DNA from: a virus
IMG/VR virus record: IMGVR_UViG_3300006198_000004
Length of the DNA stretch: 57,494 nucleotides
Direction: 5' to 3' (one strand)
Part shown: positions 1,067 through 57,494 of the stretch, piece after piece
Numbering within the stretch: the first letter of the stretch is position 1
Layout of the letters: every line of letters starts with the position of its first letter
Notes under the pieces: generated by a model
Databases searched by the model: none
The model's input: only the letters and a program-made list of their open reading frames with translations
Told to the model about the DNA's origin: nothing
Position numbers and translations under genes: made by a program

Positions 1067-1085
1067 TGTAGTAACTTGTTGTACG

Positions 1086-1817: not shown

Positions 1818-1819
1818 GC

Positions 1820-2278
1820 TCAATATCGAAAATCGGTGAAATGAATAATTTTGCCCTTGAACACATTGCCGGTGTGAACACTCCCGAAAAACCACTCTAT
1901 AAAGTCGGGTAGTTCGAGGCCGTCATTCTTGGCGAGAGTTTCAATAGGTACTGGCTTGCCGTCAACCCACGCTTGGGGCTTTTCATCATCCACTCCGTAG
2001 GTAATGGTGATGTCTTGCAGTCCTACCGACACAAACTGCTTTATATCGGCCTGCTCGGAGTTGTAGGGTCGGCCCGTCCATTCTCTCACGCATAAGATTT
2101 TGTTTCCGGCGTTGATGTCGGCCACTTTTTGCGCCCATTGTCCTTTTTCATCGGCGCGTATGGTGTGTATCTTACGACCCGCAAAGAGCTTGACCGCAAA
2201 GAGGGTATTTATGCCCTTTTTGGAGTGTGTGGCTGGGAATACCCGGCACAATGTAAGGATTACTTTCTTGCGTTCCAT
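1820..2278 (-). CDS. Small conserved protein, possibly ASCH/PUA-like
   Basis: The ORF lies between the two methyltransferase genes. The start was taken at MERKKVIL (2278), abutting the upstream stop at 2281. The fold assignment rests only on weak similarity judged by eye. Confidence 0.35.
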   Translation of the reverse strand: MERKKVILTLCRVFPATHSKKGINTLFAVKLFAGRKIHTIRADEKGQWAQKVADINAGNKILCVREWTGRPYNSEQADIKQFVSVGLQDITITYGVDDEKPQAWVDGKPVPIETLAKNDGLELPDFIEWFFGSVHTGNVFKGKIIHFTDFRY

Positions 2279-2280
2279 TT

Positions 2281-3354
2281 TTACTTGGTTAATTTGGTTA
2301 GCCATTGTTCGTAAACTTGTGTGGCTATCTGGGCTATCATTATTGGCGGTACGCTCATTCCGCAGATATATTCGGGCTTTTGAGTGCCAAAATCGTAGTC
2401 TTGTGGGAAAGATGATACTTTGCATATATCCGACACTGAGAGCCATTGTTTGCCCCAATCCGGCATAGGAGAGGCTTTTGTCCTATATCCGGCAATCAAC
2501 GTGGGGTGTATGTCGGTTTTCTGAACGAGGGCGCATTGGAGATACTTTTTCGGCAATCCTCTCTTGAGTCGGTCGTATTCCTCGGAATAGCACGGGGTAG
2601 TTATCGGGTCCCCTAACGTAAGGCCGGCCTCCTCGCATGATATACCCGGCTCGTTGAAATCAAGTATCAGACGAGGCAATACATCGAAAAGGTTGTAGGT
2701 CTGCGGCACATAGTCGATAAGGTCTTTTCGCAGACACACGAAAAAGACACGCTCACGCCTTTGTGGTACGCCCATATTCTGCGCGTCTAAAAGCCAGTGT
2801 TGGCAATAATAGCCAGCCGCATCAAATTCGGCGTAGATACGTTGCACATACTTTTTCGCATCGCCTTGCAACAAGCCTTTGACGTTCTCGGCGATTACCA
2901 CTTTCGGCTGGAGCTTACGCGCAACCTCGATGAAATCGAAAAAGAGTGTATCAAGCACTTGCGTAGCCTGCCCCTCACGAAACTTTTTCTCAACGCCCCA
3001 TGCTTTCTCACGACTACCAGCTATCGAGAAAGCGGAGCATGGCGGGGACCCGTCCAGAATATCGAGATTGTAGAGAGCTTCGGGAAATGCAGTCCTTTCC
3101 TTGAACGTCTGAATTGGCTCCAGAAACTTATAGCGCGGGTGATGGTTGCTCTCGTATAGGTTCATTACCCGAATATCTATCTCATTACAGCCTATCACGT
3201 CAAAGCCCGCCAGTTTATAGCCCATAGTCGAGCCGCCACCACAAGCAAAGCAAGAGAAAACCTTGCCTTTGTCTTTGGTGAAAATCGCGTCTTTGAGCGT
3301 CCAGTTGTAATTAAATCTATGCTCCATTTTCTTATAAAGCTGTTTGGTGAACAC
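2281..3354 (-). CDS. DNA (cytosine-5) methyltransferase
   Basis: The C5-methyltransferase motifs are present: FSCFACGGGS (I), GSPPCSAFS (IV, with the catalytic Cys), ENVKGLL (VI), QRRERVFFV (VIII) and GMSVPP (X). Confidence 0.9.
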   Translation of the reverse strand: MFTKQLYKKMEHRFNYNWTLKDAIFTKDKGKVFSCFACGGGSTMGYKLAGFDVIGCNEIDIRVMNLYESNHHPRYKFLEPIQTFKERTAFPEALYNLDILDGSPPCSAFSIAGSREKAWGVEKKFREGQATQVLDTLFFDFIEVARKLQPKVVIAENVKGLLQGDAKKYVQRIYAEFDAAGYYCQHWLLDAQNMGVPQRRERVFFVCLRKDLIDYVPQTYNLFDVLPRLILDFNEPGISCEEAGLTLGDPITTPCYSEEYDRLKRGLPKKYLQCALVQKTDIHPTLIAGYRTKASPMPDWGKQWLSVSDICKVSSFPQDYDFGTQKPEYICGMSVPPIMIAQIATQVYEQWLTKLTK

Positions 3355-3373
3355 ACTTATAGGGCGAAAAGAA

Positions 3374-4198
3374 TTAACGCCGGCGGCTACCCCCGTGCAG
3401 TTCTATCACGTTGAAAGATTTGAAACGGTCAACAAGTCTGCCCTCAAAGCGTTGTTTAAGCTCCTTGACAGTAAGGTTGCTTGTGATATGATAGCGTTTG
3501 CCGTGCTGCTGGTATATCTCATAACGGGCAAAGAGAAATTCATCCGTTATCTGGGTAAGCAACGTGCCGAAACTCTTTTGATTCTCGGTTGCAAGTCCTA
3601 AGTCATTAAGGCAAATGTTATACGGGTCCACACCGTCATAAGCCTCTTGGCGGCTTGCTCCTTGCAGTTCGTTGTAGGTGTACTTGTCAATATGCCCGAA
3701 AACCTTGTGGTAGTTCATAAGCTGGGTCATACTGATATTGCGAAACTGATTCACGTTGCTTGTCGCTTGGAGATAGTCGGCGAATACTTGCATAAGCAAT
3801 GTTTTACCCGTTCCGGGTTCACCTATCAAGAGTATGTTTTTGTGTATCTTGTAGTTCTCATTTGGAAACACAAGCTCGGCGAGGGGGCAGTCGTTGAAAT
3901 AGTATAACAAGAAACGCAAAACATCCTTGTTATGCTCATCAACCATGAAACGTGAAAACTCACGCAGCATATAGTTGTTACCCATGCCTATAACCATATT
4001 GGCGTGTACTTGGTATTCCTGCTCGTCTGTAAGGTCATACTTAAAACCTTTCAGCATAGCCTTCCTCCGGCGCATCACCAGATTGCGGGCCTGTTCCTGC
4101 TGGAGCTTGTAACGCTCCTGTTGCATATCCCGGAGTAGCTGGAGTGCCTCCTGCTGATTCTGGGGTAGTCGGAGATTTTGTTGGTTTACAAATTCCAT
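3374..4198 (-). CDS. DnaC/IstB-like AAA+ ATPase (putative helicase loader)
   Basis: It has a Walker A motif (GEPGTGKT) and follows the replication-initiator-like gene. The start is uncertain, with in-frame ATGs at 4126, 4075 and 4060. Confidence 0.65.
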   Translation of the reverse strand: MEFVNQQNLRLPQNQQEALQLLRDMQQERYKLQQEQARNLVMRRRKAMLKGFKYDLTDEQEYQVHANMVIGMGNNYMLREFSRFMVDEHNKDVLRFLLYYFNDCPLAELVFPNENYKIHKNILLIGEPGTGKTLLMQVFADYLQATSNVNQFRNISMTQLMNYHKVFGHIDKYTYNELQGASRQEAYDGVDPYNICLNDLGLATENQKSFGTLLTQITDEFLFARYEIYQQHGKRYHITSNLTVKELKQRFEGRLVDRFKSFNVIELHGGSRRR

Positions 4199-4925
4199 AT
4201 CTTTGTTGTTTTTCGTAGTAGCTATCCGCTACCCACGATAGGATTGTTCTGTAATGGCTTTTATATCGTTTACCTTTTGAGCCTATGTAGTTATCAAGAA
4301 TTTCTATCATGCCCTTTGCGGCCTCTTCTCCGTATTTCTCGCAGAGTTTGGCGTATTCGTCACGGGTCATTGATACAAATTCCCCATACTTGTATTTCTT
4401 AGCTTTCTCGGCCTTTGCCTTTTGTTCCGGGGTCATTTCTGGAGCTTGGGGCAATTCCTCATCATCGAATAATTGAGGTTGTGGCGGCTCTTGCTTGTTT
4501 TCGGGGGGAGGCTCAACGATTACGGGCGCAGGCGTTTCGGGTAATTCCGCTTGTTGCTCAATTACCTTGCGCATGGTTATCTCGCCACCCTTGCGGCCGG
4601 CGGTGCGCCTTATTGCGCTTATGCGCTCTTTTCTCACCATTTCGGGGGAGTAGTAAGCTCCTTTGTCATCAACCGCCAATAGACCGTTCTCAACAAGAAT
4701 TTCAAGTGCTATCGGGTCAATATCCAGAGTTCTTAATATCTGCCCTTTGGTGTAGAGTTTTCCGTTGGGATATGCCATAATCCCCCTTGTGGGGCTTTCC
4801 CACAGATAGCAAAGCATAGTTAGCCACATCCCCCTTATTTCGTAAGAGAGATTATTGATACGGGGGCTGTCTAACCATTCCCCCGTATCAATAGGCATTA
4901 GGGATTTGCTCCGCTTGTTTGCCAT
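4041..4925 (-). CDS. Replication initiator / DnaD-like replisome organiser
   Basis: The C-terminal YGEFVSMTRDEYAKLCEKYGEEAAKGMIEILDNYIGSKGKRYKSHYRTILSWV segment resembles DnaD or phage replisome-organiser domains. It lies upstream of the DnaC-like ATPase. Confidence 0.55.
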   Translation of the reverse strand: MANKRSKSLMPIDTGEWLDSPRINNLSYEIRGMWLTMLCYLWESPTRGIMAYPNGKLYTKGQILRTLDIDPIALEILVENGLLAVDDKGAYYSPEMVRKERISAIRRTAGRKGGEITMRKVIEQQAELPETPAPVIVEPPPENKQEPPQPQLFDDEELPQAPEMTPEQKAKAEKAKKYKYGEFVSMTRDEYAKLCEKYGEEAAKGMIEILDNYIGSKGKRYKSHYRTILSWVADSYYEKQQRYGICKPTKSPTTPESAGGTPATPGYATGALQAPAGTGPQSGDAPEEGYAERF

Positions 4926-4941
4926 AGGGGATTTGCAGTCT

Positions 4942-5691
4942 TTACGCCTCCAGAATGGCGATGTCGGGGGCTATCCCGCGGATTTCGTTCAGCACTCGGT
5001 CAATGGCCGTGTCGCGCCACTCATCGGAAATTTCCTTTGCGCCGGGCGATACGAGCTGTAAGAACACCTCGCCGTCCGTAAGGTAGTGGTCAAATTCCAC
5101 ATCGAAAGTGGTCTTTTCCGGCCCCTTGAAAATAGGGATTTTCACGGTGAACGACTTGGGCAGGTTGCTTTCTACCGTCTGGCGATAGACCTCGGCGCGA
5201 GAGCCGGACGGGTCATGCTGCTTTTCGATTTGAGATTGGGCGTTGGCTTTGAAATTCTTGAGGGCCGATACGAGTTTCATGCACTGCTCTTTGTCCTCAA
5301 AGGTAGCACGATTGAGGCGTATGAATTGCCCCAGTTTGGCGGGTACCCAGCCGGCGTTGGGGTCGTTGATACCGAATTTCTTGAACACCTCGGAGAGTTC
5401 GGCGGTGCCGGAGATTGTGGCTTTGTTGTAGGGGTCGCTTTCGTTGACAATAAGCGTGATTGTGTACTTTTCACGCTCCACCAGAATTTTTGCCTTTTTC
5501 TGCTCGATTGTGTCAACTCGCTTCCTCAGCCAGTCCAGCGGTGTTGAGAGAACACCTGCCACGTCCGTACTTACGGGGGCTTTCTCATCCAGCACTTTGC
5601 CAGCTACGCCCTCGCGGTAAACTATCACGATAGGCTTTTCACCCGTGTAGTTTTCGATTGTGAGATTGATTTTGTTGTTATTCTCATCCAT
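4942..5691 (-). CDS. Hypothetical early protein
   Basis: It is a long ORF in the operon context. I recognise no secure motif. Confidence 0.5.
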   Translation of the reverse strand: MDENNNKINLTIENYTGEKPIVIVYREGVAGKVLDEKAPVSTDVAGVLSTPLDWLRKRVDTIEQKKAKILVEREKYTITLIVNESDPYNKATISGTAELSEVFKKFGINDPNAGWVPAKLGQFIRLNRATFEDKEQCMKLVSALKNFKANAQSQIEKQHDPSGSRAEVYRQTVESNLPKSFTVKIPIFKGPEKTTFDVEFDHYLTDGEVFLQLVSPGAKEISDEWRDTAIDRVLNEIRGIAPDIAILEA

Positions 5692-5718
5692 TGTTGTAAG
5701 GATTAAGTTGGTGAATTG

Positions 5719-6153
5719 TTAATCATCCGTGCCGGTGCGCAAAAAACGCGCAGCCTGAATGATGTTGCGTTGTCTTTCTTCGGGTGTCATGGCACGTTCC
5801 TCTATCTTGTAGCCGTCAGCGGAGTAGTAGGCTGTTCTACCCGCCTCAACGTCAACAAATTTGAAAGTGTCGGCCGTTACCCACTCGCCACGGGCTTTCA
5901 GCTCATCAAGAATTTTGCCCCGACGTTCAAGCAAAGGCTTGATACGGCCTTTGATGTCGGCACGCACTTGTGCAAGCTCATCTTCAAGCTCCGCCACTTG
6001 GATTGACACGGATTCAAGCTCGGCGCGGCGGTCGTTAACCTCGTCTTGGTTGAAAGAGCGCGTAAAACTACGCGGCTCTATCTGGTCGCAGTTGTCGCGC
6101 AGCATTTGCTCACGAGCTTCAACCGGGTCATTGGGAAACATTACATCTTGCAT
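5719..6153 (-). CDS. Hypothetical coiled-coil early protein
   Basis: The ORF sits in the operon and has a charged heptad-like segment (ELESVSIQVAELEDELAQVRADIK). Confidence 0.5.
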   Translation of the reverse strand: MQDVMFPNDPVEAREQMLRDNCDQIEPRSFTRSFNQDEVNDRRAELESVSIQVAELEDELAQVRADIKGRIKPLLERRGKILDELKARGEWVTADTFKFVDVEAGRTAYYSADGYKIEERAMTPEERQRNIIQAARFLRTGTDD

Positions 6154-6183
6154 ATCTCTTATGTTTTTGAGGTGAATTGCAGT

Positions 6184-6798
6184 TTATTCAAGGTGGCCGC
6201 CCACGGTGAAATTGTAGGCATAGGCTTCAGCCCACAATTCCACGAATTGCTTGCCAAAGTATTCTGCCTTTTCCTCGGTGTCAAGGCACAAGCGGAACGC
6301 CCCATACGCATACGCCCACGAGCTACGACGGCGCGCAAGCAGAGAACCGAAACCCGCAAGCGCGCCAGCGCACGCATGGGCAGACAGGAGGGCACCCCGT
6401 TCATCATCGCTCATGTTGGAGATTTCGCCGGGGGTCCAGAGTGCCATTACCGGGTACCACCACACTTTGCTACCGTCAGCCGTGGGCTGGCATTTGTTCT
6501 CGCCGCCCCATAGAGCTTTGCAAATATGCTCCAGCTTCATTTGGGCGATAATATGGTTAGGTACTCCGGCGGCTACGAGCTTTTCAACGTCCAGACTTTC
6601 GCCAAGAGCAACGCAAGCGTCCTCGTAGGAGCGAATTGTGGTATAGTCTGAAAGACTTGGTGCTGGTCGGGAGGGTGTTGCAGTTGTTTCGTTATCCCCT
6701 ACGAGAACAGCGAGAATTTTGCGCGTGTTGTCATCGGCCATTGCATAAGCCGCCTCATAGTTCGCGCTTGTGATTTTGAGTTCTTTGTTTTCGCTCAT
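6184..6798 (-). CDS. DGR target protein 2 (small C-type-lectin-fold-like variable protein, no signal peptide)
   Basis: Residues GALLSAHACAGALAGFGSLLARRRSSWAYAYGAFRLC align with the TR-encoded GAILSANANNGANAGFGYLNANNRSSWTNANGAFRFY. The DNA differs from the TR only at TR adenines. Confidence 0.85.
   Translation of the reverse strand: MSENKELKITSANYEAAYAMADDNTRKILAVLVGDNETTATPSRPAPSLSDYTTIRSYEDACVALGESLDVEKLVAAGVPNHIIAQMKLEHICKALWGGENKCQPTADGSKVWWYPVMALWTPGEISNMSDDERGALLSAHACAGALAGFGSLLARRRSSWAYAYGAFRLCLDTEEKAEYFGKQFVELWAEAYAYNFTVGGHLE
6285..6398 (-). other. DGR variable region VR2 (remote)
   Basis: My hand alignment to TR 19998-20111 shows about 18 substitutions. All fall at plus-strand T positions of the TR, which are A on the coding strand. 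Confidence 0.85.
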
Positions 6799-6936
6799 CG
6801 TCTAATTGTTTGAGTTTATTGATGTTAATTTTTAGTCATTCGTATTGCATTTGCCACTCTAAGGCTCTTTGTCGGATTAGGTGGCAAGAGGTCTAATATC
6901 ATCGGAATATGTCTTACCAATTCCGATATTACGTTG

Positions 6937-7389
6937 TCAGCTACCGGTATCATTTGTGCGCCAATATTTATCCGGGTCTGGTATTTCGATACCGAGAAAT
7001 TCACGTCCGTACTCCCGCAGCTTTTCGCAATAAGTTGAGAATTGCACGGTGTCCATTGTGGCGGTCGAGCTTGGAAATTCCACTATTTCGCCCGTGTGTC
7101 GATTAACAACACTCTCTTTGGCGATAATGGATTTGAAAAACTCATGCACCTGCTCCACCGTGGTAAACTCCCAGCCGGCCTCTAAAAGACCGTCTAAAAG
7201 CATGGGATAGATGCAACCCCAGAGCCAACCGTTTTGGTCGTTGGTGCGCGGCTTGCGGATTTTCTTAACCTCAATATGGTAAAGTCCATCGCATACCTGC
7301 GCAAACCACTCGTATAGGGGTCGGAGATTGAAACGCCCGCTTATCTTTTCTACCATAACCTTTGCCATATCAATACTTGGAAATGTCAA
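6937..7389 (-). CDS. NinB/Orf-like recombination mediator (tentative)
   Basis: The PRTNDQNGWLWGCIYP motif resembles the RSxxQNxxLW signature, and the gene sits in the recombination module. Confidence 0.4.
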   Translation of the reverse strand: MTFPSIDMAKVMVEKISGRFNLRPLYEWFAQVCDGLYHIEVKKIRKPRTNDQNGWLWGCIYPMLLDGLLEAGWEFTTVEQVHEFFKSIIAKESVVNRHTGEIVEFPSSTATMDTVQFSTYCEKLREYGREFLGIEIPDPDKYWRTNDTGS

Positions 7390-8098
7390 GAGTTAAGCCC
7401 GGATTTGCGGCATACACAACCTTACCTGTCAATCGTTCTATCTCGCTTATGAAATGCTCTCGGTCGCTATTCTGCGCGGATAGGTGCAAAAGCACGATAT
7501 TCTGAACGAGCGATAGGTCATGCTCACTAATTACGCGCTTGCAAGTGTCAAGCTCCATGTGCGAGTTAGGCAGTCGCTCAATCTGACTTTTGAGCGTGTA
7601 GCCCTTATTCACGGCCTCAAGCAACTTGTAGTTGGAATAGTTGCACTCAATCAGCAAGTGGCTTAAATTCGGGAATATTTGCAAGCAATCGCAACTATCG
7701 GTAAGGAACATCAAGCGGCCACATTCGGGGTGCATGATATGATAGCCCACACAAGGCACATCGTGAAATGCGGGGAAAGGCAACACCTTAAACCGCCCCA
7801 GCTTGTAGCCTTTGCCCGGTCGTATGGCTATTGCACGAGAGCCGGCCACCTGCTTTGCAGTCCATACCTCCGGCAATGCCAGTGTTGTAATTCCACTATC
7901 AACCATGTTACGAATATATTTGGCGTGGTCGTTGTGCTGGTGAGTGATTAGGCAGCCCGCCACCTTGCGGAGATTGAATCCCAAAGCCTTTTTGACTTTC
8001 GGAAAAGCAATACCGGCCTCAAGTATCAAAGCCTCTTTGCCATTGTCGAGAATATAGCAATTACCGGCTGACGAGCTACCTAACACTTTCAGTTCCAT
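7370..8098 (-). CDS. Metallo-beta-lactamase-fold hydrolase/nuclease
   Basis: It has the HxHxDH motif (ITHQHNDHAKY) and lies next to RecT. Confidence 0.8.
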   Translation of the reverse strand: MELKVLGSSSAGNCYILDNGKEALILEAGIAFPKVKKALGFNLRKVAGCLITHQHNDHAKYIRNMVDSGITTLALPEVWTAKQVAGSRAIAIRPGKGYKLGRFKVLPFPAFHDVPCVGYHIMHPECGRLMFLTDSCDCLQIFPNLSHLLIECNYSNYKLLEAVNKGYTLKSQIERLPNSHMELDTCKRVISEHDLSLVQNIVLLHLSAQNSDREHFISEIERLTGKVVYAANPGLTLDISKY

Positions 8099-8110
8099 TT
8101 GTCGAGCGTG

Positions 8111-9082
8111 TTAAAATCCACATTCGATTACTTGTGCTTCCTCACTCTCAACCTCAGTGGGGGCAGGTGTAATGTCCTCATACTCCACCGTGGTTGCGTC
8201 AACCGCTTGTGCGGTCGTTGCGCTGGCAGTGTCGGCGGTCGGAGCTTTGACAACGCTTTGCGTTGCGGCCCCGTCATCGCTATCAAGTGCCTGCTGGAGT
8301 TCCACGGAGAGATAGCCATATTTACTTAGTAGATTTCTTAGTACGGTCTTAATCGCCATGCCGTGAAAGTTTCCGAGCCAGCCCAGAGAGCCGCTATCGG
8401 CTACCACGGGGAGCTTTGAAAGCTCCATAAGCGACTGAACGGTTACATCACGATTGCCCTTGATTGCTTTTGAGTAGCGTTTGGCGTGTATGGCAATTTC
8501 CTCAACACTCATGTAGAGTGCCTTGTGATAGCCGTTGAGCAATTCGATATAGGCAAAGTAGCCTATAACGGTTTCGCTCTTGCGGTCTCCGTCTAAGTCG
8601 ATTTCGCCCGTGAGCTTGGATTTCTTTTTGAGTTCGCCCTCATACACCACATCGGCGTTGATAATGCGATACTGACCCGTGCGCATTGCGAGTTGATATA
8701 AGCCCTTATAGCCTATCTGGAAAGTCGGCTCATACTGCTTGCACTTGGAGCCGTCCGGCAATGTAACAGTGTTGTTGTAGGCTATGATGAAAGCCTGTCC
8801 GAGAGCCTTGTTGATAGGCAGGCGCAGAACGGCCGCTTTTAAGGCTTCTTTCACTACGAGGGTAGGGTCGCATAGCTGGAGCTTGCCGTCCGTGCTGAAA
8901 AGTTCCAGAACGGCCGCCATAAATGTTGAGGCGTTCTGCTGGAGGGCGTTCTCAAATTGCTTTTTGATTGCGCCATTGTTCAGCACCTCGTTAAGCTGGT
9001 TGACAGGCGATTTCTTTGCCGGTGCCGTCTGTGGAGCCGGCGCGGGTGCAGTCATCGGAGCTGCTTGTCTTGTCTGTGTCAT
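8111..9082 (-). CDS. recT: RecT-family single-strand annealing protein
   Basis: The central region is RecT-like (GYKGLYQLAMRTGQYRIINADVVYEGE; GYFAYIELLNGYHKALYMSVEEI). Confidence 0.8.
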   Translation of the reverse strand: MTQTRQAAPMTAPAPAPQTAPAKKSPVNQLNEVLNNGAIKKQFENALQQNASTFMAAVLELFSTDGKLQLCDPTLVVKEALKAAVLRLPINKALGQAFIIAYNNTVTLPDGSKCKQYEPTFQIGYKGLYQLAMRTGQYRIINADVVYEGELKKKSKLTGEIDLDGDRKSETVIGYFAYIELLNGYHKALYMSVEEIAIHAKRYSKAIKGNRDVTVQSLMELSKLPVVADSGSLGWLGNFHGMAIKTVLRNLLSKYGYLSVELQQALDSDDGAATQSVVKAPTADTASATTAQAVDATTVEYEDITPAPTEVESEEAQVIECGF

Positions 9083-9090
9083 TGTGGTAA

Positions 9091-11058
9091 CTATTGAATT
9101 GTTAGAGTTCTGTCATAGCTCACGCGCAGATTGATAACCTGCGAGATTGTGGGGATTACCTCATTGACACTTTCGCGGTTGTCAATAAAGATAGGCGCGG
9201 AAAAGCCTTTGGCTACGCATAAGGCGTTGATAATATCAAGCCCGGCATTGAGCTTTCCGGCGGCGTTCACATCGGGATAGGGGGTGCCGTTCACCGTGCA
9301 TACACAAGTGATTTTCTCGCCACCGTTCTTTTGCTCTTTGAGGAAAGAGAAAGAAACGTACTTGAAAAGGCCGTTGATACGCTCATAGAGCATTTCATCT
9401 TTGGCTTTGAGGAAGCGCGTGTAGGTGTCCTCCCAGCACTCCAAATCGGCTATGGCTTGATTGTTGGCAATCCGTTTTTCCTCTAACTCAGAGATTTCCT
9501 TTCGGCAGCGGGCGATTACCTCACGCTTACCCAGTCGGCGGTTGAGTTCGGCGATACTTTCCGACAACATGGCTTTTGCCTCTTGGAGTTCGCTTGTGTC
9601 GGCCGGCTTTACATCGGCGTAAATCTGGTTATTCAGTTCCTCTATTTCGTTGGCAAGCGCAACGCATTGAGGGTCGGCCCCGATTATTTCCTCAACATTG
9701 AGCGCGGCGGGAATATGCGCTTTGGCATATTCGATTTTGCCTTTCAGCTCCAGCACCCTGTCTTGGAGCGTTGAGATTTGCCCTGTAAGGCGCGTTTCAT
9801 CGGCCTTTGCTTGGTCGAGCGACTTGCGCATTGGTATTCCACGAGCCTGTATCTCCTTTTGGCGTTTGGCTTTGTCCTGCTCAAAGTTGCCACGGATTCT
9901 ATCAAGTGTTTTGGCGAGATTATCACCTTTCAGCGGTTCGCCACAAGTGGGGCATACGAGGCTTTCTTTGGTCGGCTCAACGAATACCTCTAACGCCACG
10001 GCCTTAAAGTCCTCGCGTAAGCCTACAATATCCTTGTCGAGCTTGGATATAGTGCCTTGCACGGTTTCAAGCTCACGGGTCTTAGTGGCAATGTTACGCT
10101 CCATTGTGGCAAGCTCACTCTCCATTGCCTCTAAGTCGGAGATAGCTTTGTTACGGTCGGAATTGGCTTGCACACGGATTTCATTCTGACGGTTGCCTAA
10201 CGCCAGACGTTTTTCTCCCTGTAAGCGCATAAGTTCAACCTTGCGCTTGTTGGCGGCATTGGCCGCTGCGCTCACATCGGAAAGTTGAGCGTCAATGTCG
10301 GCGAGGCTCTTTTTCTTATCGGCAAGCTCTTTCTCCAACGCGGCCCAGTCCTCATCTTCGGGCATTAGCTTTTGCGCCATTTCGATATTTGAGGGTATGG
10401 TTGTGAGCGCATCATTGCAACTCTTTTTCTTGGCTGCTACCTCTTGGGCGTACTTGATTAAGGACGTGCCGTTGATATGGTCCAGCAACGCCATAAATTC
10501 CGGGCTTAAAGCGGCCACCTCGTCATCGGATATGTTGCCTACCATTTGGAGCAACATTTCTTTCTGGTCCTCAGCCGACAGGCGGGGGAATAGGTAGGGA
10601 TTGGTTATCAGCCTAAATACATCTTCGGGGATAATCTCGGAGATTTCGGCTTGATACTCCTTTTTGGTACCGCAACGCACATCGTTAATGAAAAACTGTG
10701 TTTCGTCTTTCATCACCTCATCGGTGGTGCCGTTTACCTTGTTCCATTTCTCCACAAGGCAGCGTTGCAGTTTAATCTCTCTCCCGTCCACGTCAAACAC
10801 GCCAGTTACGGAGTGTTCCAGACGATAGATAGGTTTTCCGTTCTTGTCGAGGGTCTTGACATTAAAGCCCCCGTTACCATCGCCACGGCCTGCGCTATCC
10901 TTTCCGAATAGCAGCCACAAGTAAGCATCATAGAGCGTGGTCTTGCCCGTAGCGTTACCGCCTGTAATCGTAACCACGTCACTATCAAAGCTCACATCAA
11001 AGGAGCGTACCCCCTTGAAATTCACCAGCGACAGCGATTTTAATTTAATTGTTCTCAT
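9091..11058 (-). CDS. SMC/SbcC-like AAA ATPase with long coiled coil
   Basis: The N-terminal Walker A is in the RecF/SbcC-type context (LVNFKGVRSF...ITGGNATGKTTL), followed by a long coiled coil and a CxxC hinge. The start was taken at MRTIKLKS (11058). Confidence 0.75.
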   Translation of the reverse strand: MRTIKLKSLSLVNFKGVRSFDVSFDSDVVTITGGNATGKTTLYDAYLWLLFGKDSAGRGDGNGGFNVKTLDKNGKPIYRLEHSVTGVFDVDGREIKLQRCLVEKWNKVNGTTDEVMKDETQFFINDVRCGTKKEYQAEISEIIPEDVFRLITNPYLFPRLSAEDQKEMLLQMVGNISDDEVAALSPEFMALLDHINGTSLIKYAQEVAAKKKSCNDALTTIPSNIEMAQKLMPEDEDWAALEKELADKKKSLADIDAQLSDVSAAANAANKRKVELMRLQGEKRLALGNRQNEIRVQANSDRNKAISDLEAMESELATMERNIATKTRELETVQGTISKLDKDIVGLREDFKAVALEVFVEPTKESLVCPTCGEPLKGDNLAKTLDRIRGNFEQDKAKRQKEIQARGIPMRKSLDQAKADETRLTGQISTLQDRVLELKGKIEYAKAHIPAALNVEEIIGADPQCVALANEIEELNNQIYADVKPADTSELQEAKAMLSESIAELNRRLGKREVIARCRKEISELEEKRIANNQAIADLECWEDTYTRFLKAKDEMLYERINGLFKYVSFSFLKEQKNGGEKITCVCTVNGTPYPDVNAAGKLNAGLDIINALCVAKGFSAPIFIDNRESVNEVIPTISQVINLRVSYDRTLTIQ

Positions 11059-11665
11059 TCTTGAATATTTTATTGAGTGGTAATCCTTTGTTGTTTCGGT
11101 ATCGGATTGTTCCGGGTGCGACACCTAAGCGTTGCGCCCATTCGCTTATAGTCAGAGTTTCACCATTGAAAGTTATTTTATGATTGTTTCTTTTGTTTCG
11201 TGCTTGTGTTAAGCTATCTACCCAGCGGCAATTATCCGGCTCATAGCCTAAATCGGGATTTATACGGTCTATTGATAAGCCCTCTTGATAGCCGTTGTTG
11301 ATAGCCCACGTTTTGAAATTATCATAATTTTGCCACTCGGAGCAGAGGGCGATTCCACGGCCGCCATATTGAGGATAATTTTTGTGGCGTTGATATTCAC
11401 AACGCTGTTTCATACCTCGCCACACATGATACAACCTCGTATTGCTTTCTCCGTGTTTTGTATTTCGTGCGGTCGCTTTTTCAGAGGATATGCACCCGCA
11501 GCTTTTTGTATTGCCACGTTTAAGACTTGCGCCTAATACGGATAAGGTTTTGCCACAATCGCATTGGCATAGCCACAAACTTTGTCCTCTACGGTCAGAG
11601 CCATTTCTGGCAATAACTACCAACCTACCGAAGCGTTGGCCGATAAGATTACTTGCTTTGCTCAT
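11045..11665 (-). CDS. AP2/HNH-associated DNA-binding protein
   Basis: The pattern GRLVVI...WLCQCDCG...SCGC, then YHVWRGMKQRC and YGGRGI..C.EW, is typical of phage AP2-like or HNH-associated proteins. Confidence 0.55.
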   Translation of the reverse strand: MSKASNLIGQRFGRLVVIARNGSDRRGQSLWLCQCDCGKTLSVLGASLKRGNTKSCGCISSEKATARNTKHGESNTRLYHVWRGMKQRCEYQRHKNYPQYGGRGIALCSEWQNYDNFKTWAINNGYQEGLSIDRINPDLGYEPDNCRWVDSLTQARNKRNNHKITFNGETLTISEWAQRLGVAPGTIRYRNNKGLPLNKIFKNENN

Positions 11666-11946
11666 CTGTGAATTATTGTGTTGAGCCTTTCGGCATTGTT
11701 GATTGCCATCAGTTCGGCGCGTGAATAGTAGCGTTTGGAGTTTTTTGCGGACCCGTTACGTTGTGGCGTTATCAATCCGCTTTCCACCCAGCGTTTAACC
11801 CTCACCTCTTGGAATTGACTATACGCCTCACGTTGAGAAATAAGGTCGCTTGCCGGAGCCGCTTCCTTTTGGTAGGTCGCAACACCAAGAGCCGCCATAT
11901 TCGCGCATAGCGTTTTCAGTTCGTACAATTCCATTGTGATTGTCAT
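11662..11946 (-). CDS. Small DNA-binding protein, excisionase-like (tentative)
   Basis: It is a 94-aa basic protein with an HTH-like segment, and its stop and start overlap its neighbours in the operon. Confidence 0.35.
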   Translation of the reverse strand: MTITMELYELKTLCANMAALGVATYQKEAAPASDLISQREAYSQFQEVRVKRWVESGLITPQRNGSAKNSKRYYSRAELMAINNAERLNTIIHR

Positions 11947-12173
11947 TGCTTTGCTACCTTATGCGCTTTGTGAGCTTTGATTTTGCGAATAAGCAAATCC
12001 TTGAGGCTCTCCCCGTCCTCTTTGTCGAGAAAGAGTAAGCCCGAAAAATAGAGAGAAGCGGCTACGAAAAGCCAGTGCGCCGGATTACCGGCGCATACTC
12101 CCCAGATAGCCCCGGCGAGGCATAAGAGCCAAATGCAGAGCCAGACGGTGTTGTAAATTTGTGTTCCTGTCAT
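11943..12173 (-). CDS. Small membrane protein (two predicted TM helices)
   Basis: There are two hydrophobic stretches (VWLCIWLLCLAGAIWGV; WLFVAASLYFSGLLFL). Confidence 0.5.
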   Translation of the reverse strand: MTGTQIYNTVWLCIWLLCLAGAIWGVCAGNPAHWLFVAASLYFSGLLFLDKEDGESLKDLLIRKIKAHKAHKVAKQ

Positions 12174-12187
12174 CGGTGTTGCAATTT

Positions 12188-12412
12188 TTATGTGAATAAT
12201 TCTTGTTCGGGAATACCTAACTCTTTGGAAATAATAGAGGTTTTGAGCGCATCCGGCTTTTGAGTGCCGGCTATCCAGCAGCGCACCGTAACCTCATGCA
12301 CTTTACACAAAGCGGCGATTTTCTTAACGAAAGCCGTTTTTGGGGCTACCTCAGCCTTTGGGGGCAGAGCGTCATAGAATAGGCGAAACCTTGTTTTTTT
12401 CTTGTTCTCCAT
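12188..12412 (-). CDS. Cro-like HTH regulator
   Basis: It is a 74-aa protein with an HTH (KKIAALCKVHEVTVRCWIAG) and is divergent from the XRE repressor gene. Confidence 0.6.
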   Translation of the reverse strand: MENKKKTRFRLFYDALPPKAEVAPKTAFVKKIAALCKVHEVTVRCWIAGTQKPDALKTSIISKELGIPEQELFT

Positions 12413-12564
12413 TATAATTCTTATAGTGTTATGTGTTCCGTAAGCACAAATTTTTGTATCTTTGCGGCATTACAAAACTGATTGTGTCGCAAAGTTAGAC
12501 ATTCTTTGCGATATATCGCTAAGTATCGCAAATAAAAATTGCAATATTAACAATTATTAACAGC
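12413..12564. promoter_or_regulatory. Immunity switch region
   Basis: - -7 boxes: TATCTTTG (12457-12464, plus strand) and TAACTTTG (12490-12497, minus strand).
- 12-bp palindrome GCGATATATCGC (12508-12519), plus TATCGCAAA (12524-12532).
- 17-bp site TGTGTTC-CGT-AAGCACA (12432-12448). Confidence 0.6.
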
Positions 12565-13050
12565 ATGCCAATCAAGATAGACCTTAACGGCCTCCGAAAA
12601 TCTTTAGGTTTGAAGCAGGCCGAATTTGCCGAAAAGATAGGCATTAAACAAGCCTATCTATCTGAGTTGGAGACAGGTAAAAAGCCTATTCCGACCAATA
12701 TATACAACTCTCTCGTGGATGTGTTTGGCGAGGAAACTTGCGATACGTTTGCAATATCGCAAGAGGAAGCCATAAGCGGTCAACATTTCCACGGCCCGAT
12801 AACGGGGGATAACCCACAATTCGCCGGGCATGATTTCAATAACAACCCGCCATGCAATTTTGGCATCGAGGTTGAAAGGGTAATCGCGGCCATGACTGCA
12901 CAAGCAGACCTCACAAAAGAAGCTCACGAGATAACCAGACGCGCACAAGCCCAAGTTGACCGAGCGCAAGCGCAGGTTGACGTGGCACAACAACAAATGA
13001 ATCGCCTATTGGCTATAATTGAACAGAAACTAAATATTGTACCAGTATGA
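12565..13050 (+). CDS. XRE-family HTH repressor (CI-like) without an S24 peptidase domain
   Basis: The N-terminal HTH is LRKSLGLKQAEFAEKIGIKQAYLSELETGKK. The C-terminus is a Q/A-rich coiled coil (AQAQVDRAQAQVDVAQQQ), and no Ser-Lys autocleavage motif is visible. Confidence 0.75.
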   Translation: MPIKIDLNGLRKSLGLKQAEFAEKIGIKQAYLSELETGKKPIPTNIYNSLVDVFGEETCDTFAISQEEAISGQHFHGPITGDNPQFAGHDFNNNPPCNFGIEVERVIAAMTAQADLTKEAHEITRRAQAQVDRAQAQVDVAQQQMNRLLAIIEQKLNIVPV

Positions 13051-13355
13051 TTTGGATTTTTCTTATCCCGATAATCTGCCTAATACTCGCGGCGATTGTC
13101 AAAGGCTTTACGACAACTCCAAGCCAAAGCCTTAATCAAAAATTCGTAAGTCTTGGCACACTTACAGGCAAAACCTACTCGCAGATTACAAGTGTAGTTG
13201 GCGAGGCTAACTCCAAAAATTCTATTGGTAATGGAACAATCCTTTGCCAATGGGTTCAGCCTGCCTATCACATAGCGTTATTATTTGACGCGAACATGAT
13301 TTGTTTGGGAGTGGAGAGCGAAACAAAGGTTGATGAAACGCAGTTAGGACTATGA
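13047..13355 (+). CDS. Membrane-anchored small protein (candidate superinfection-exclusion factor)
   Basis: It has an N-terminal TM helix (MIWIFLIPIICLILAAIV) and overlaps the stop of the repressor gene. Confidence 0.5.
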   Translation: MIWIFLIPIICLILAAIVKGFTTTPSQSLNQKFVSLGTLTGKTYSQITSVVGEANSKNSIGNGTILCQWVQPAYHIALLFDANMICLGVESETKVDETQLGL

Positions 13356-13552
13356 ACGAATACTACCGAATGGTGATTGAGCTTTTCAAGGAGAGCCTCA
13401 CCAGCGTAAACCGGGTAAATCCCGATGAAAGCCTCCGGGTGCTGATAGAGATAGAAAAAGCGATAACAACTGCAAAAATCACCGGACAGCCCCTTGATGA
13501 GCTATACCAGCTCAAAGCGGATGTTGAGTTGATAAGAGCTTTGAATGAATGA
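13352..13552 (+). CDS. Hypothetical small protein
   Basis: Its start and stop overlap its neighbours in the repressor operon. Confidence 0.45.
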   Translation: MNEYYRMVIELFKESLTSVNRVNPDESLRVLIEIEKAITTAKITGQPLDELYQLKADVELIRALNE

Positions 13553-13803
13553 ACACTCCGATAAGCAAGCAAATCATGGAGCGTTTCTATTGCGCTCTTG
13601 ACGCGATAATAGCCATGAAGCGTATTCGCGGAGTAAACACATATTGTCGGCTATATGAGATAGACCGCCGCAACCTTATCGCCAATCGAAAGGATTTAGA
13701 TAGGGGATGGTTTCAAGTTTCGTGGCTCCAGCCGATGATAACCGACTACGGAGTAAACGCCAAATGGCTCTTGACCGGCACCGGCAAGATGTTTGATGAA
13801 TAA
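13549..13803 (+). CDS. CI-repressor-type HTH domain protein
   Basis: The C-terminal signature VNAKWLLTGTGKMF matches the WLLTGEG motif of the phage CI repressor HTH domain. Confidence 0.55.
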   Translation: MNTPISKQIMERFYCALDAIIAMKRIRGVNTYCRLYEIDRRNLIANRKDLDRGWFQVSWLQPMITDYGVNAKWLLTGTGKMFDE

Positions 13804-13808
13804 GAATA

Positions 13809-13845
13809 GGGCAGCACTTTCGGGTGTTGCCCTGTTTTGTTCTTT
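13809..13845 (+). terminator. Rho-independent terminator of the repressor operon
   Basis: The stem GGGCAGCAC/GTGTTGCCC (one G-U pair) is followed by TGTTTTGTTCTTT. Confidence 0.7.
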
Positions 13846-13953
13846 CCCCCACACCCCCTATTTTAATATACATATACTCTTTTACTACTACTCTTAATAT
13901 AGTGTGTATATATACGCGCGCAGGCGCATTATGCGCGCAGGCGCGAGGCAAAA

Positions 13954-14329
13954 TTTTGCCTAAGCAAAACCGCCTAAAAAGTATCTTGAATTTCAGCGAC
14001 TTACAAATTTTGCTTAGGCAAAACGGTGATTTTGGGATTTTGCTTAGGCAAAAGTTGTGAATGTGTTGATTATCAGCGTTTTGCGAGTTTTGCCTAAGCA
14101 AAATTTTAGGGCGTGGAACATTTTGCCTAAGCAAAACCGAAAGCGCAAAGCATTGATTTTGTGGGTATTTCAAAATTTTGCCTAAGCAAAACGGGGTCGA
14201 AAAAGTGTGTTTGAGAGCCTATTTTTAGCCACTTTTTGCCCTAAAAATTCCGTGGAACATTTTGCTTAGGCAAAATCACCTTGAAATTATTTTGATATTC
14301 AGATATTTACAAATTTTGCTTAGGCAAAA
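13954..14329. repeat. Array of eight 16-bp palindromes TTTTGC-YTAR-GCAAAA
   Basis: Copies lie at 13954, 14008, 14038, 14088, 14121, 14176, 14260 and 14314, with a degenerate copy at about 14234. The array is non-coding and sits between convergent genes. It is flanked by an AT-rich tract (13860-13915) and a GC island (13916-13946). Confidence 0.85.
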
Positions 14330-14331
14330 CG

Positions 14332-15606
14332 CTATTTTTTAGGCTCGTCAACACTTGGTAAATCCAATGCCAGAAAATCAAGCACGGCGCGGTTGGCCGC
14401 ATCTATTTTATCCCAGCTCTTGCGAATGTAAATGTCGGTTACGCGCATATTCTCGTCAACATGGTTTAGGGCAGTATGCACCGTGTATTTATCAACCCCA
14501 GCGTCATTGTTGGCTATCGTAGCCCAACTATGCCGGGCCGCGTAAAACTCCAAATCATCAACGCCGATAATCTTACCTATGCGTTTCAATCCTTTGTTGA
14601 GCGCAGCGCAAAATGTATCGGTGGATGAATAGAGCCGATAGAAATTGAACACCCTTTGCCCCGTGGTGTCGCGGTACTTATCCACAAGAGCCTGCGCCTC
14701 CGGCTCAATCCTTATGGAGATTTCCGCTTTGTCGGCACGGCGGTTGCGTGTCTTTTGGCGTTGGTAGGTTATGCGGCCGTCCGCGATGTCGGTTGCGGCG
14801 AATAGGTCGGCGGCGTTCATGCCTACAAGAAAGAAACTCAGAAGAAACACGTCCTTTGCAAAATTGAACCGATTCACTCCGGGTTGTAGTATGGTCGTAT
14901 ATGGAACTTGCGCAAAAGCCCGCATCTGCTCGACTGACAAAGCGCGTTTGCGCGATAGCGAGGGCTTTGGTATCTCTACCTTGTTGAACGGAGAGAAAGG
15001 TATGCGGATAATTCCGGCTTCCTCATCGTTAAATTCTTTCTTAGCCCGGTTATACATTGCCCGGAGTTGCGCAAGATACAGGCTTTGGGCGCGGTCTCCT
15101 TTCTTGCAGTCCTTACGCGGTGGCTGCTTGGCTATCCATGCTATCCAGTCATTGAGGAATTGCACCGTGATTTCCTTAATGCTGACAACCTCACGCTCGG
15201 CAAATCGTTTCAGACTGTTTATTGCCACCTTGTAGGCTTTGGCGGTCCCGCCTCGTCCGTCTTTCTCCAGCTTGGCGATGAAAGCCTCGGTGTAGGCTAC
15301 TATATCCAAGTCAAAGGGTTTTTCTCTATCTTTTGCCAGCAACTCCACGACCTGCTCCACGGTCATATCGTCCAGACCCTCGCCCACGCTGTTGCATATA
15401 GCGCGATAGCGGCGCAATGTGTCCTCTACCATGTCGATGTACTTTTGGTTTTTGAGCTTGAGGGCGCGTGTCAAATCCTCTTTACCTACATACCACGGAG
15501 TAGAGAGATACTTTTTGCGCTGCTTGTGAGTAACGCGGATTTTTATGTTATAGGTGCCGTCGGCTCTCTTTTGATGAGCATACACCTCTGCTTTGAAAGT
15601 TGCCAT
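14332..15606 (-). CDS. int: Tyrosine recombinase (phage integrase, Bacteroidota type)
   Basis: The N-terminal arm-binding-like segment is MATFKAEVYAHQKRADGTYNIKIRVTH. The C-terminal catalytic region is ARHSWATIA...ALNH...TDIYI (Tyr). Confidence 0.9.
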   Translation of the reverse strand: MATFKAEVYAHQKRADGTYNIKIRVTHKQRKKYLSTPWYVGKEDLTRALKLKNQKYIDMVEDTLRRYRAICNSVGEGLDDMTVEQVVELLAKDREKPFDLDIVAYTEAFIAKLEKDGRGGTAKAYKVAINSLKRFAEREVVSIKEITVQFLNDWIAWIAKQPPRKDCKKGDRAQSLYLAQLRAMYNRAKKEFNDEEAGIIRIPFSPFNKVEIPKPSLSRKRALSVEQMRAFAQVPYTTILQPGVNRFNFAKDVFLLSFFLVGMNAADLFAATDIADGRITYQRQKTRNRRADKAEISIRIEPEAQALVDKYRDTTGQRVFNFYRLYSSTDTFCAALNKGLKRIGKIIGVDDLEFYAARHSWATIANNDAGVDKYTVHTALNHVDENMRVTDIYIRKSWDKIDAANRAVLDFLALDLPSVDEPKK

Positions 15607-15614
15607 TTTCTCTT

Positions 15615-15631
15615 GTAGAACTATTGTAGAA
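15615..15631. repeat. 17-bp GTAGAACTATTGTAGAA element, copy 1 (tandem GTAGAA(C) heptamers 11 bp apart)
   Basis: It is an exact repeat of 15938-15954 and lies in the integrase 5' leader. Confidence 0.8.
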
Positions 15632-15712: not shown

Positions 15713-15784
15713 TGTAGCCCTGCGGGGAATCGAACCCCGATTTAAGGTTTAGGAAACCCTCGTTCTATCCGTTGAACTACAAGG
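15713..15784 (-). tRNA. tRNA-Arg(CCT)
   Basis: I folded the cloverleaf by hand:
- acceptor AGCCTTG/CAGGGCT;
- D arm GTTC-AACGGATA-GAAC;
- anticodon arm AGGGT-TTCCTAA-ACCTT;
- T arm CGGGG-TTCGATT-CCCCG;
- discriminator A, with no encoded CCA. Confidence 0.85.
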
Positions 15785-15937
15785 CTTTATGTAGTCTAAT
15801 CAATGTGTCGGCTCTAAAACATTCACTCGGTAAACAAAATTTGCTCTCAAATTTTGCGTTCAACCCGGAATAGATGTTTAGGAAACTCCTATTTTAACTT
15901 TGATTATCAACCAGATACGAGGCTAATTCGTTATTTC

Positions 15938-15954
15938 GTAGAACTATTGTAGAA
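15938..15954. repeat. 17-bp GTAGAACTATTGTAGAA element, copy 2
   Basis: It is an exact repeat of 15615-15631 and lies on the other side of the tRNA. Confidence 0.8.
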
Positions 15955-45904: not shown

Positions 45905-46168
45905 ATGAAAGAGAAACAAAGAGGTATGGCTACCTCAAACAGCCAAACGGAGTTTGACCTACTGCTTACTCTCGCCAAAAAGGTTGCTCGGCTTCGTGAT
46001 GAGTTTGAAAAACTCTCAATGAGCAAGGTGTGTGACGGAATATTCTCGGTTAATTTCTTTGAGGCTCAAAACCGCCTTAACGAAATTCTGCTCACTGACC
46101 TTACGGCTCCGATGCACTCGTGCGTGATAGAACAGTTTGTAAACCACGCAAGCGAGGAGGGCGTATGA
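45905..46168 (+). CDS. Hypothetical protein upstream of the antirepressor
   Basis: The ORF follows the leader. The start is at ATG 45905 or 45926. Confidence 0.45.
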   Translation: MKEKQRGMATSNSQTEFDLLLTLAKKVARLRDEFEKLSMSKVCDGIFSVNFFEAQNRLNEILLTDLTAPMHSCVIEQFVNHASEEGV

Positions 46169-57325: not shown

Positions 57326-57494
57326 TTATCGGTTATCGCCCGTGCCGTGGATAGTACCCCGGAGCTTACGGGCAGCTATTTTTGCGAGATTGAGAGTTGC
57401 CACCTCGGAAAGTGAGGAACCTATTGCCCTTGCAAGATTGGCGGTGTACCAAAGCACATCGCCCAATTCGTAGGCTATTCGGTCCCGTGTGTCC
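57326..57494 (-). CDS. MazG-like pyrophosphohydrolase, C-terminal part (continuation of 1-238 across the junction)
   Basis: My translation gives ...ARAIGSSLSEVATLNLAKIAARKLRGTIHGTGDNR*, with the stop at 57326-57328. Confidence 0.75.
   Translation of the reverse strand, partial: DTRDRIAYELGDVLWYTANLARAIGSSLSEVATLNLAKIAARKLRGTIHGTGDNR
57418..57494. repeat. Terminal overlap, copy 2 (identical to 1-77)
   Basis: It is an exact 77-nt match to the start of the window. Confidence 0.9.

Follow-up and report, generated by a model that had tools for sequence, protein, structure and literature searches.

An array of oriented 16-mers next to the integrase gene of a Bacteroidales phage: anatomy, conservation and candidate binding proteins

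The non-coding gap between the lysogeny operon and the integrase gene (int) of the phage recorded in IMG/VR as IMGVR_UViG_3300006198_000004 holds eight copies of a palindrome-like 16-mer, raising the question of which protein would bind such an array and what the resulting complex would do. The whole stretch of DNA analysed, 57,494 nt in length, is referred to here as the window. Its first 77 nt were found to be identical to its last 77 nt (1-77 and 57418-57494; an assembly overlap), and the phage genome is therefore circular with a size of 57,417 bp. Compared with the circularised genome of Bacteroides phage Versailles, whose host is B. caecimuris, the window was collinear, with a nucleotide identity of 64-81% (mostly 65-72%); it is a circular Bacteroidales phage related to Versailles, which is carried by a strain of the defined OMM12 mouse community. 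The array was found to be among the most conserved stretches of the lysogeny-int region in a widespread temperate Bacteroidales phage family, and it bears on the control of int, of lysogeny maintenance or of DNA organisation in Bacteroides prophages. Loci compared with the window are designated by L-numbers, with L001 corresponding to Versailles and L233 located on contig IMGVR_UViG_3300042816_000038.

Anatomy and phasing of the 16-mer array

A search of the window with TTTTGCYTARGCAAAA returned eight exact matches, with starts at 13954, 14008, 14038, 14088, 14121, 14176, 14260, and 14314; no further match was detected in the 57.5-kb window even at three mismatches, and dinucleotide shuffles of the window gave no exact match. 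The eight exact copies counted in the initial annotation were borne out by this search and are confined to 13954-14329, and the irregular 30-84 bp spacing it described was likewise recovered, with start-to-start distances of 54, 30, 50, 33, 55, 84, and 54 bp. Its bounds for the gap, from the intrinsic terminator at 13803-13838 to the int stop codon at 14332, were also confirmed, as were the AT-rich tract (13859-13915) and the GCGCGCAGGCGC direct repeat (13913-13944). The features of the gap and its borders are as follows (integration host factor, IHF).

13803-13838, plus strand: intrinsic terminator of the lysogeny operon, a 16-pair stem followed by a T run
13840-14331, no strand: non-coding region with C-rich box, AT tract, GC island and array
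13840-13858, no strand: conserved C-rich box TTCTTTCCCCCACACCCCC
13859-13915, no strand: TATATA-rich tract, ~57 bp
13913-13944, no strand: GC island with two (T)GCGCGCAGGCGC copies 17 bp apart
13945-13953, minus strand: extra half-site GAGGCAAAA, which pairs tail-to-tail with site 1
13954-13969, plus strand: site 1, TTTTGCCTAAGCAAAA
13985-14007: conserved spacer of a 54-bp module, CTTGAATTTCAGCGACTTACAAA, IHF-like
14008-14023, minus strand: site 2 (the plus strand reads TTTTGCTTAGGCAAAA)
14038-14053, minus strand: site 3
14071-14083, plus strand: TATCAGCGTTTTG, which matches the IHF consensus of E. coli (WATCARNNNNTTR) exactly and overlaps half-site TTTTGCGA
14079-14086: second extra half-site, TTTTGCGA
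14088-14103, plus strand: site 4
14121-14136, plus strand: site 5
14176-14191, plus strand: site 6
14219-14248: degenerate region, previously listed as a ninth copy, with inverted repeat TATTTTTAG / CTAAAAAT and no match at up to 3 mismatches
14260-14275, minus strand: site 7
14292-14313: second conserved spacer of a 54-bp module, TTGATATTCAGATATTTACAAA
14314-14329, minus strand: site 8, ending 2 nt short of the int stop codon
14332-15606, minus strand: tyrosine integrase (phrog_1, Phage_int_SAM_5)

The two forms of the site, TTTTGCCTAAGCAAAA and TTTTGCTTAGGCAAAA, are exact reverse complements, and the array is therefore composed of one oriented 16-mer rather than of two centre variants. Along the array the sites run in the order + - - + + + - -, with four in each orientation. 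Each 16-mer, TTTTGCTT followed by AGGCAAAA, is a near-palindrome made of two 8-bp half-sites in which seven of the eight position pairs are complementary; the sites had been described as perfect palindromes, which the asymmetric centre contradicts. The claim that the centre varies independently of the flanks, and that the unit is for this reason a symmetric binding site, also fails because the two centres are reverse complements in which the Y and R positions co-vary; the observation behind it, that CGTGGAACA stands ahead of the CTAA site at 14112 and of the TTAG site at 14251, was confirmed. The asymmetry of the centre was found to be kept across 52 unique related arrays (TTAG 165, CTAA 54, TTAA 2, CTAG 2, and TTGG 1), with a 3:1 orientation bias relative to int. 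Flipped centres were detected at orthologous sites with identical flanks, and rare CTAG forms were found as well, on which grounds centre flips seem to pass via perfect palindromes that do not persist. The supposed degenerate ninth copy at about 14233 was unconvincing, with six mismatches; the array instead contains the two extra half-sites listed above. The half-site GAGGCAAAA together with site 1 forms a perfect palindrome at 13946-13961, the only perfect 16-bp palindrome in the genome.

As judged from the sequences, the basic unit is the 8-bp half-site TTTTGCYT. Runs of three to four isolated TTTGCTT/AAGCAAAA half-sites at 11-12 bp were found beside or flanking the palindromes in the divergent relatives L010, L045, and L079 and also in L009, L015, and L082. 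At a larger scale, an 84-nt module (13950-14033) with two sites at a distance of 54 bp recurs at 14256-14339, the two copies being 80% identical. The spacer of these 54-bp modules has the consensus ..TAA...aCTGAa.ttCAA..a.TTACAAA (51 unique modules), which is similar to the IHF consensus of E. coli, with an exact match in 11 of 45 modules; the motif class of 14071-14083 also recurs in relatives. The distances between adjacent sites in related arrays peak at 22, 30, 54-55, 65, and 75-79 bp and have a periodicity of 11.0-11.2 bp (R = 0.49 vs a null 99.9th percentile of 0.21; 216 unique segments, with kinship among segments uncontrolled). The geometry is of the operator type, with the T1-C6 and G11-A16 blocks 10 bp apart and present in multiple phased copies. 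Taken together, the presence of both orientations, the half-site runs, the periodic spacing and the conserved spacer indicate protein binding at the DNA level on one helical face, and the array is probably bent into a higher-order nucleoprotein complex. The proposal that this is a multi-copy array of predicted protein-binding sites, and neither a chance feature nor coding DNA, is thus supported.

Other roles for the repeated sequence were considered and rejected. A 165-amino acid (aa) open reading frame (ORF; 13676-14173, with a TTG start on the minus strand) overlaps in antisense the end of an 84-aa gene, the terminator, the AT tract and five of the sites. We agree with its earlier dismissal as an artefact: it crosses the terminator antisense and is not conserved, the matching stretch of Versailles being broken up by 1.6 kb of other inserted genes. 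A coding function is thereby ruled out. A cluster of promoters is likewise ruled out, as the array has no Bacteroides -7 box; a scan of 13846-14331 for TAnnTTTG on either strand found none, and the same scan detects the promoters of the lysis-lysogeny switch and of int (a sigma-70 promoter scan is uninformative for this host). At the RNA level, an Rfam scan of the whole window at the gathering threshold gave tRNA only, and the 16-mer, which is present in both orientations, would fold into no more than an A/U-rich hairpin of 6 bp. A terminator-like site for int was not found on the int strand within the array.

Distribution, flanking elements and the attachment site

The exact 16-mer was located in IMG/VR at 98 loci, about 55 of which carry arrays of 4-11 sites; the remaining matches are single hits in loci without genes common to this phage. 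Versailles has nine copies, and arrays were also found in prophages of Alistipes sp. CAG:831 and of a Muribaculaceae metagenome-assembled genome (MAG). Across the array-bearing loci the 16-mer is identical while the surrounding DNA is only ~65-70% identical. Wherever int is present, the order of elements is constant: the 84-aa gene, 0.1-3 kb of cargo, a terminator, the TTCTTTCCCCCACACCCCC box, a TATATA-rich tract of ~60 bp, the array and the int stop codon. The gap between the array and the int stop is ~5-25 nt in every int-bearing locus; L013 is the exception, its array adjoining only a C-terminal int remnant. The TTCTTTCCCCCACACCCCC box occupies the same place in Versailles (L001:5793-5812), L009, L015, L036, L050, L073, L082, and L013, and the TATATA-rich tract adjoins the array in every relative, even where cargo parts the tract from the 84-aa gene. 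A comparable GC island was seen in the closest relatives only, as GCGCGCAGGCGC in L050 and as the related but different GCGCACGCGCATAATGCGC in L197 and L114. The 0.1-3 kb of variable cargo between the terminator of the 84-aa gene and the unit of C-box, AT tract and array appears to mark a hot spot for moron insertion, with examples in Versailles (L001:4300-5760), L004, L043, and others.

The motif might also have been a common repeat of host genomes, a possibility raised at the outset. The host-genome contig scan returned, among the matches listed, mostly single hits; Bacteroidales showed only prophage arrays or single hits, and dispersed copies came from a Chitinophagales MAG and from Ca. Spyradosoma, where the 16-mer lies at the core of unrelated repeats. 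Within the range covered by the scan, these matches speak against a general host repeat. In the two unrelated cases the 16-mer forms the hairpin core of repeats resembling repetitive extragenic palindromic (REP) elements (L152, L169, L173, L177, and L215 in Chitinophagales MAG.64; L104 and L185 in Ca. Spyradosoma). A search of plasmids with the 16-mer gave no match, nor did a sequence search of the PDB, and the open-access literature, queried for the motif core, yielded nothing relevant. Scanning for the pattern of three TTTGCTT half-sites gave 118 unrelated loci, none with the 84-aa family. Matches inside a DUF1376-like replication gene (L394 and L375) were set aside as selection bias.

Many contigs begin inside the array, among them near-full-length contigs of metagenome 3300045988 (L006, L011, L021, L027, L048, and L051) that start 1-4 nt ahead of a 16-mer. 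Reading these starts as a pac or cos packaging site was rejected, since lysogen contigs and the circular window read through the array and the terminase genes lie ~37 kb away. The starts are best explained by assembly breaking at exact internal repeat modules.

The phage attachment site (attP) was mapped with five metagenomic lysogen contigs that encode an identical 84-aa protein and differ from one another in the host genes beyond int. All five cease to match the window at 15886-15896, inside a partial tRNA copy (15862-15886); a sixth contig with the identical 84-aa protein is the phage form. The attP core thus spans 15862-15896, and the array lies 1.55 kb away, internal to the prophage. The core is flanked by direct-repeat pairs of the form GTAGAAC-N4-GTAGAAC (15614-15631 and 15937-15954), which every relative retains; other integrase lineages have analogous arm-repeat pairs of different sequence. 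The GTAGAAC pairs are probably the arm-type sites of Int. Given junctions 1.55 kb off and a different arm repeat, the array is a feature of the prophage interior and not a set of arm-type sites. Arm-type sites would be expected within ~250 bp of the core and on both sides of it, neither of which applies to the array, and the attP reading is ruled out. An apparent enrichment of half-sites near attP (3 TTTTGC in 211 bp) was not significant genome-wide, and one of the three is the -7 box of the int promoter (Pint). The GTAGAAC pair nearer to int is positioned between the int ATG and this -7 box (minus strand, 15649) and recurs in all relatives, which suggests int autoregulation. An intact phage tRNA-Arg(CCT) lies at 15714-15786, next to the attP core, itself a partial copy of this tRNA. 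In lysogens (L222/L227 12166-12367) the phage copy was the only tRNA called by ARAGORN, with no hybrid tRNA across the junction. Integration may therefore disrupt the tRNA-Arg of the host, for which the phage copy would stand in.

Candidate binding proteins

Two DNA-binding proteins encoded in the window emerged as candidates for binding the array, an 84-aa CI-type helix-turn-helix (HTH) protein and a ParB/Spo0J-family protein. Their genes are placed in the genome as follows.

245-12412, minus strand: early operon encoding a ParB-family protein, two methyltransferases, a DnaC-like loader, a replisome organiser, RecT, an SbcC-like protein, HNH and small proteins
245-1117, minus strand: ParB/Spo0J-family protein with ParB_N, HTH_ParB and KorB matches and a GERRYRA box
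12412-12565, both strands: divergent switch with Bacteroides-type -7 boxes on both strands
12565-13803, plus strand: lysogeny operon encoding a 161-aa HTH_3 CI, then 102-aa, 66-aa and 84-aa proteins
13549-13803, plus strand: 84-aa CI/XRE-type HTH protein ('X', phrog_9710), encoded last in the lysogeny (CI) operon
15606 onwards, minus strand: attP with tRNA-Arg, then lysis and structural genes

The array is read here, tentatively, as a multi-site operator or docking platform for the 84-aa protein, which on sequence comparison is the most likely binder, ahead of the ParB-family protein. The protein matches phrog_9710 (E = 9e-35) and no Pfam or NCBIfam model. Its AlphaFold2 model (predicted local distance difference test score 82) has a five-helix fold, for which Foldseek gave the N-terminal domain of phage 186 CI as the top match (2fjr, prob 0.99), with other XRE regulators next and all E-values weak; the predicted fold is that of a CI/XRE DNA-binding domain. 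The gene ends 150 bp from the array and was found to be the gene most often co-located with the motif, being present in all 62 loci that extend far enough. It is also the best conserved of the neighbours, with a median identity of 80% compared with 66% for int and 45% for the replisome organiser, and all array-bearing clades keep the HTH segment TYC..IDRRN..RGWFQ.SW almost unchanged. Furthermore, in the otherwise unrelated phage L233/L514, an array of TTTGCTTC/GAAGCAAA, a terminator and an AT tract lie between an 84-aa homolog and a convergent int, and the homolog is the only protein common to the window within 10 kb of the array. The 161-aa HTH_3 CI (12565-13050) was rejected as the binder, as it was detected in only 6 of ~60 array-bearing loci.

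Several observations weigh against the 84-aa protein. Most members of its family have neither an array nor nearby TTGC-N4-GCAA palindromes, including the L235 type (55 loci), Albibacterium, Riemerella phage PJN03, and L510-L517; in PJN03 the homolog is present and no comparable repeats were found. The recognition helix of L233 reads INRWN instead of IDRRN, yet its half-site is similar, and L246 combines a helix of the L233 type with another mini-repeat. Simple covariation of helix and motif therefore fails, and the L235 type is a further misfit; within the array-bearing clade, helix and 16-mer are both invariant. In relatives up to 3 kb of cargo parts the 84-aa gene from the array, which stays with int, and there is no promoter under the array, unlike in classical operators. 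Convergent relatives without an array imply that a roadblock at this position is not generally required. Lastly, the genome encodes a ParB-family protein that requires a 16-bp palindromic site and has no other candidate site for it.

That ParB/Spo0J-family protein is a serious, if less likely, alternative: the array may be a parS-like loading site or centromere for a protein acting without ParA, whose dimers would sit on the 16-bp sites and be compacted by IHF-like bends as in P1 parS, and whose cytidine triphosphate (CTP)-dependent clamps could spread over the lysogeny operon and int (KorB-like lytic silencing) or position phage DNA. The ORF at 245-1117 passes TIGR00180 (87 bits vs a cut-off of 58) and retains an intact CTP-binding box (GERRYRA) and an HTH_ParB domain; the box and the HTH are invariant, the latter in all relatives down to 62% identity. 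The gene is present in array-bearing contigs where this could be checked, divergent clades included. A 16-bp site with 8-bp half-sites resembles parS in layout, the genome contains neither a canonical parS nor another palindrome of at least 14 bp, and P1 parS is a precedent in which ParB boxes surround an IHF site. In the 55 relatives that lack an array, no ParB-like gene was found within 10 kb to the left or right of the 84-aa homolog; as these phages have hardly any genes in common with the window, this co-absence carries no information. Counter to this reading, the array is 12.8 kb from the parB-like gene, and the 0.5-1 kb around parB contained no 16-mer site in any of 136 loci; the ~30 window proteins scanned did not include a ParA; the site is unrelated to parS, with no parS match at up to 3 mismatches; direct runs of isolated half-sites are atypical of Spo0J-type ParB; and phage L233/L514 has an array with no ParB-like gene within 10.3 kb. 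We consider it unlikely that the array is specifically a ParB/KorB-like clamp-loading site from which clamps at 8-11 sites would silence the lysogeny operon and int; if it were, a partition-type protein would be part of the lysis-lysogeny switch in a widespread gut phage family. Two ParB-like proteins had been named as possible binders, and this one has both ParB_N and HTH_ParB, whereas the product of 53993-55114 combines ParB_N with DUF4417 and has no HTH. The gene for the latter sits just upstream of the terminase genes.

Other explanations look beyond these two proteins. A conserved DNA-binding protein of the Bacteroidales host, for example a nucleoid-associated or regulatory protein recruited by the phage, would account for a 16-mer that is invariant across Bacteroides, Alistipes and Muribaculaceae phages while the phage proteins diverge, and for a similar half-site in the otherwise unrelated L233/L514; among the matches listed there was no sign of recurrent use of the site in Bacteroidales chromosomes, which is weak evidence against a reading that we regard as quite unlikely. 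Use of the 16-mers as iterons of a replication origin, with the TATATA-rich tract as the unwinding element, is less probable still. It fits a multi-copy phased array beside a conserved, very AT-rich tract and the finding of no other iteron-like cluster in or near the replication module or elsewhere in the genome; the replisome organiser (4041-4925), however, lies at a distance of 9 kb and reaches only 42-68% identity (median 45%) among phages whose 16-mer is identical, phage L233/L514 combines this type of array and AT tract with an entirely different replication and recombination module (Lin1244_N, AAA_24, PcfJ/K), and GC skew was uninformative. The tract also occurs in the attP arm of relative L516 and is therefore not origin-specific. 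Thus, among the binders and roles first proposed, the adjacent 84-aa HTH protein and one ParB-family protein survive, while the iteron origin is disfavoured by the unrelated replication genes of L233/L514 and the poor conservation of the replisome organiser. Improbable to about the same low degree or lower is a role with the integrase, as arm-type or accessory sites or as a distant recombination enhancer for Int similar to the Mu operator/internal activation sequence (IAS). The array always abuts the 3' end of int, which is the lambda-like position of attP, the IHF-like sites and AT tract recall the attP arms of relatives (L516), and the arm repeats of related integrases hold GCAA-type motifs (AGCAACAAA and ACTTGCAAAT); nonetheless the crossover is 1.55 kb away, the arm positions are taken by the GTAGAAC-N4-GTAGAAC pairs kept in every relative, the N-terminal domain of Int (median 67%) is no better conserved than the rest of the protein, and the int of L233 is unrelated.

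The 84-aa family itself comprises more than 320 clusters at 50% identity and is without a Pfam or NCBIfam model. In Bacteroidota prophages its gene is always the last of a CI-type operon beside int or att, in either orientation, as exemplified by Riemerella phage PJN03 and an Albibacterium genome (L508, L509-L517). In L246, whose homolog is 44% identical, four tandem 11-bp TAATGTGGGGG repeats (4286-4345) lie between the 84-aa gene and the int stop; these repeats have a CCCCCACA motif in common with the C-rich box beside the array of the window.

A putative nucleoprotein complex and its relation to known systems

If the 84-aa protein is the binder, two half-sites placed head-to-head would form the 16-mer bound by one dimer. 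Dimers made from the CI operon in lysogens would occupy the phased 16-mers and the half-site runs, while a host IHF/HU-like protein would bend the 54-bp modules and fold each pair of sites together, such that 8-11 dimers could build one large wrapped complex similar to a repressosome or a partition complex. The complex would exist in lysogens because the 84-aa protein is co-transcribed with the CI repressor. Its place would be the point of convergence between int and the lysogeny operon with its morons, at the end of the prophage nearer to attL; as int has no recognisable terminator there, the complex would act as a roadblock or silencer between the two units, possibly over int, and could for instance keep int transcripts from extending antisense through the lysogeny operon. 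The anatomy, conservation, phasing and position of the array are established, whereas we infer the identity of the binder, the role of the bending protein and the roadblock or silencing function. The array offers a sharply defined and easily synthesised DNA target with two candidate proteins and a tractable lysogen. Were the 84-aa protein found to bind, a function would be assigned to a large family encoded beside int/att in Bacteroidota prophages; were it the ParB-like protein, partition-type machinery would have been reused in an integrating phage.

By analogy, the array would work most like a multi-operator or a centromere-type nucleoprotein platform, and is at most a candidate member of the families compared here. 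The nearest analogues include P1/P7 parS, in which ParB boxes A and B surround an IHF site, and F sopC, which has 12 repeats each with a 16-bp inverted repeat. Similar to these, the array has many short motifs (here predicted to be bound by an HTH) in both orientations, 16-bp inverted repeats, modules of ~80 bp around a bend site and a ParB-family protein in the same genome. Unlike them, it comes with no ParA among the proteins scanned, lies far from parB, and has irregular spacing, an obligately asymmetric centre and an unrelated sequence; moreover, there is no obvious need for partition because this phage integrates. In RK2, the ParB-family silencer KorB acts from 13-bp palindromes (OB, TTTAGCSGCTAAA), a likeness in that a ParB-family protein may act without partition, the palindromes are off promoters and long-range silencing is conceivable. 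The OB sites, however, are single and dispersed rather than clustered, no KorA partner is known here, and the similarity of the motifs is superficial.

Among phage repressors, the 186 CI wheel (pR, FL, and FR sites) and P2 C (direct repeats two turns apart) were taken as multi-operator comparators. In common with these systems, the candidate binder has a 186-CI-like HTH, many sites are phased by whole turns with 22 bp common, half-sites are arranged both directly and inverted, and the gene is in the lysogeny operon beside int. The array differs in having no promoter under the sites and 8-11 sites in one block; unlike 186 CI, the 84-aa protein is a bare domain without an oligomerisation domain, and a separate, variable 161-aa CI acts at the switch. 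The Mu operator/enhancer (O1-IHF-O2) is comparable in that an IHF site lies between repressor-type sites, ~1-1.5 kb away from where recombination occurs and near the recombinase gene, whereas the N-terminal domain of the Mu transposase has the specificity of the repressor, binding by Int is unsupported here, and the Mu region contains promoters. Lambda-type and plasmid iteron origins have in common with the array repeated dyad-type sites, helical phasing and a flanking AT-rich tract; in contrast to them, the array is away from the initiator gene, the initiator is poorly conserved compared with the invariant sites, and the array recurs with an unrelated replication module. The distinctive set of features is the obligately asymmetric 16-mer, the 54-bp paired modules, the half-site runs, the C-rich box with the TATATA tract, and the fixed position at the 3' end of int.

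The small proteins of the early operon include a 94-aa HTH_17/MerR-like protein, and at the distal end of this operon the ParB-family gene is followed by N6/N4 and C5 DNA methyltransferase genes (245-3354). A gene for a KilA-N/ANT antirepressor is located at 46120-47028, in a plus-strand island amid the late genes.

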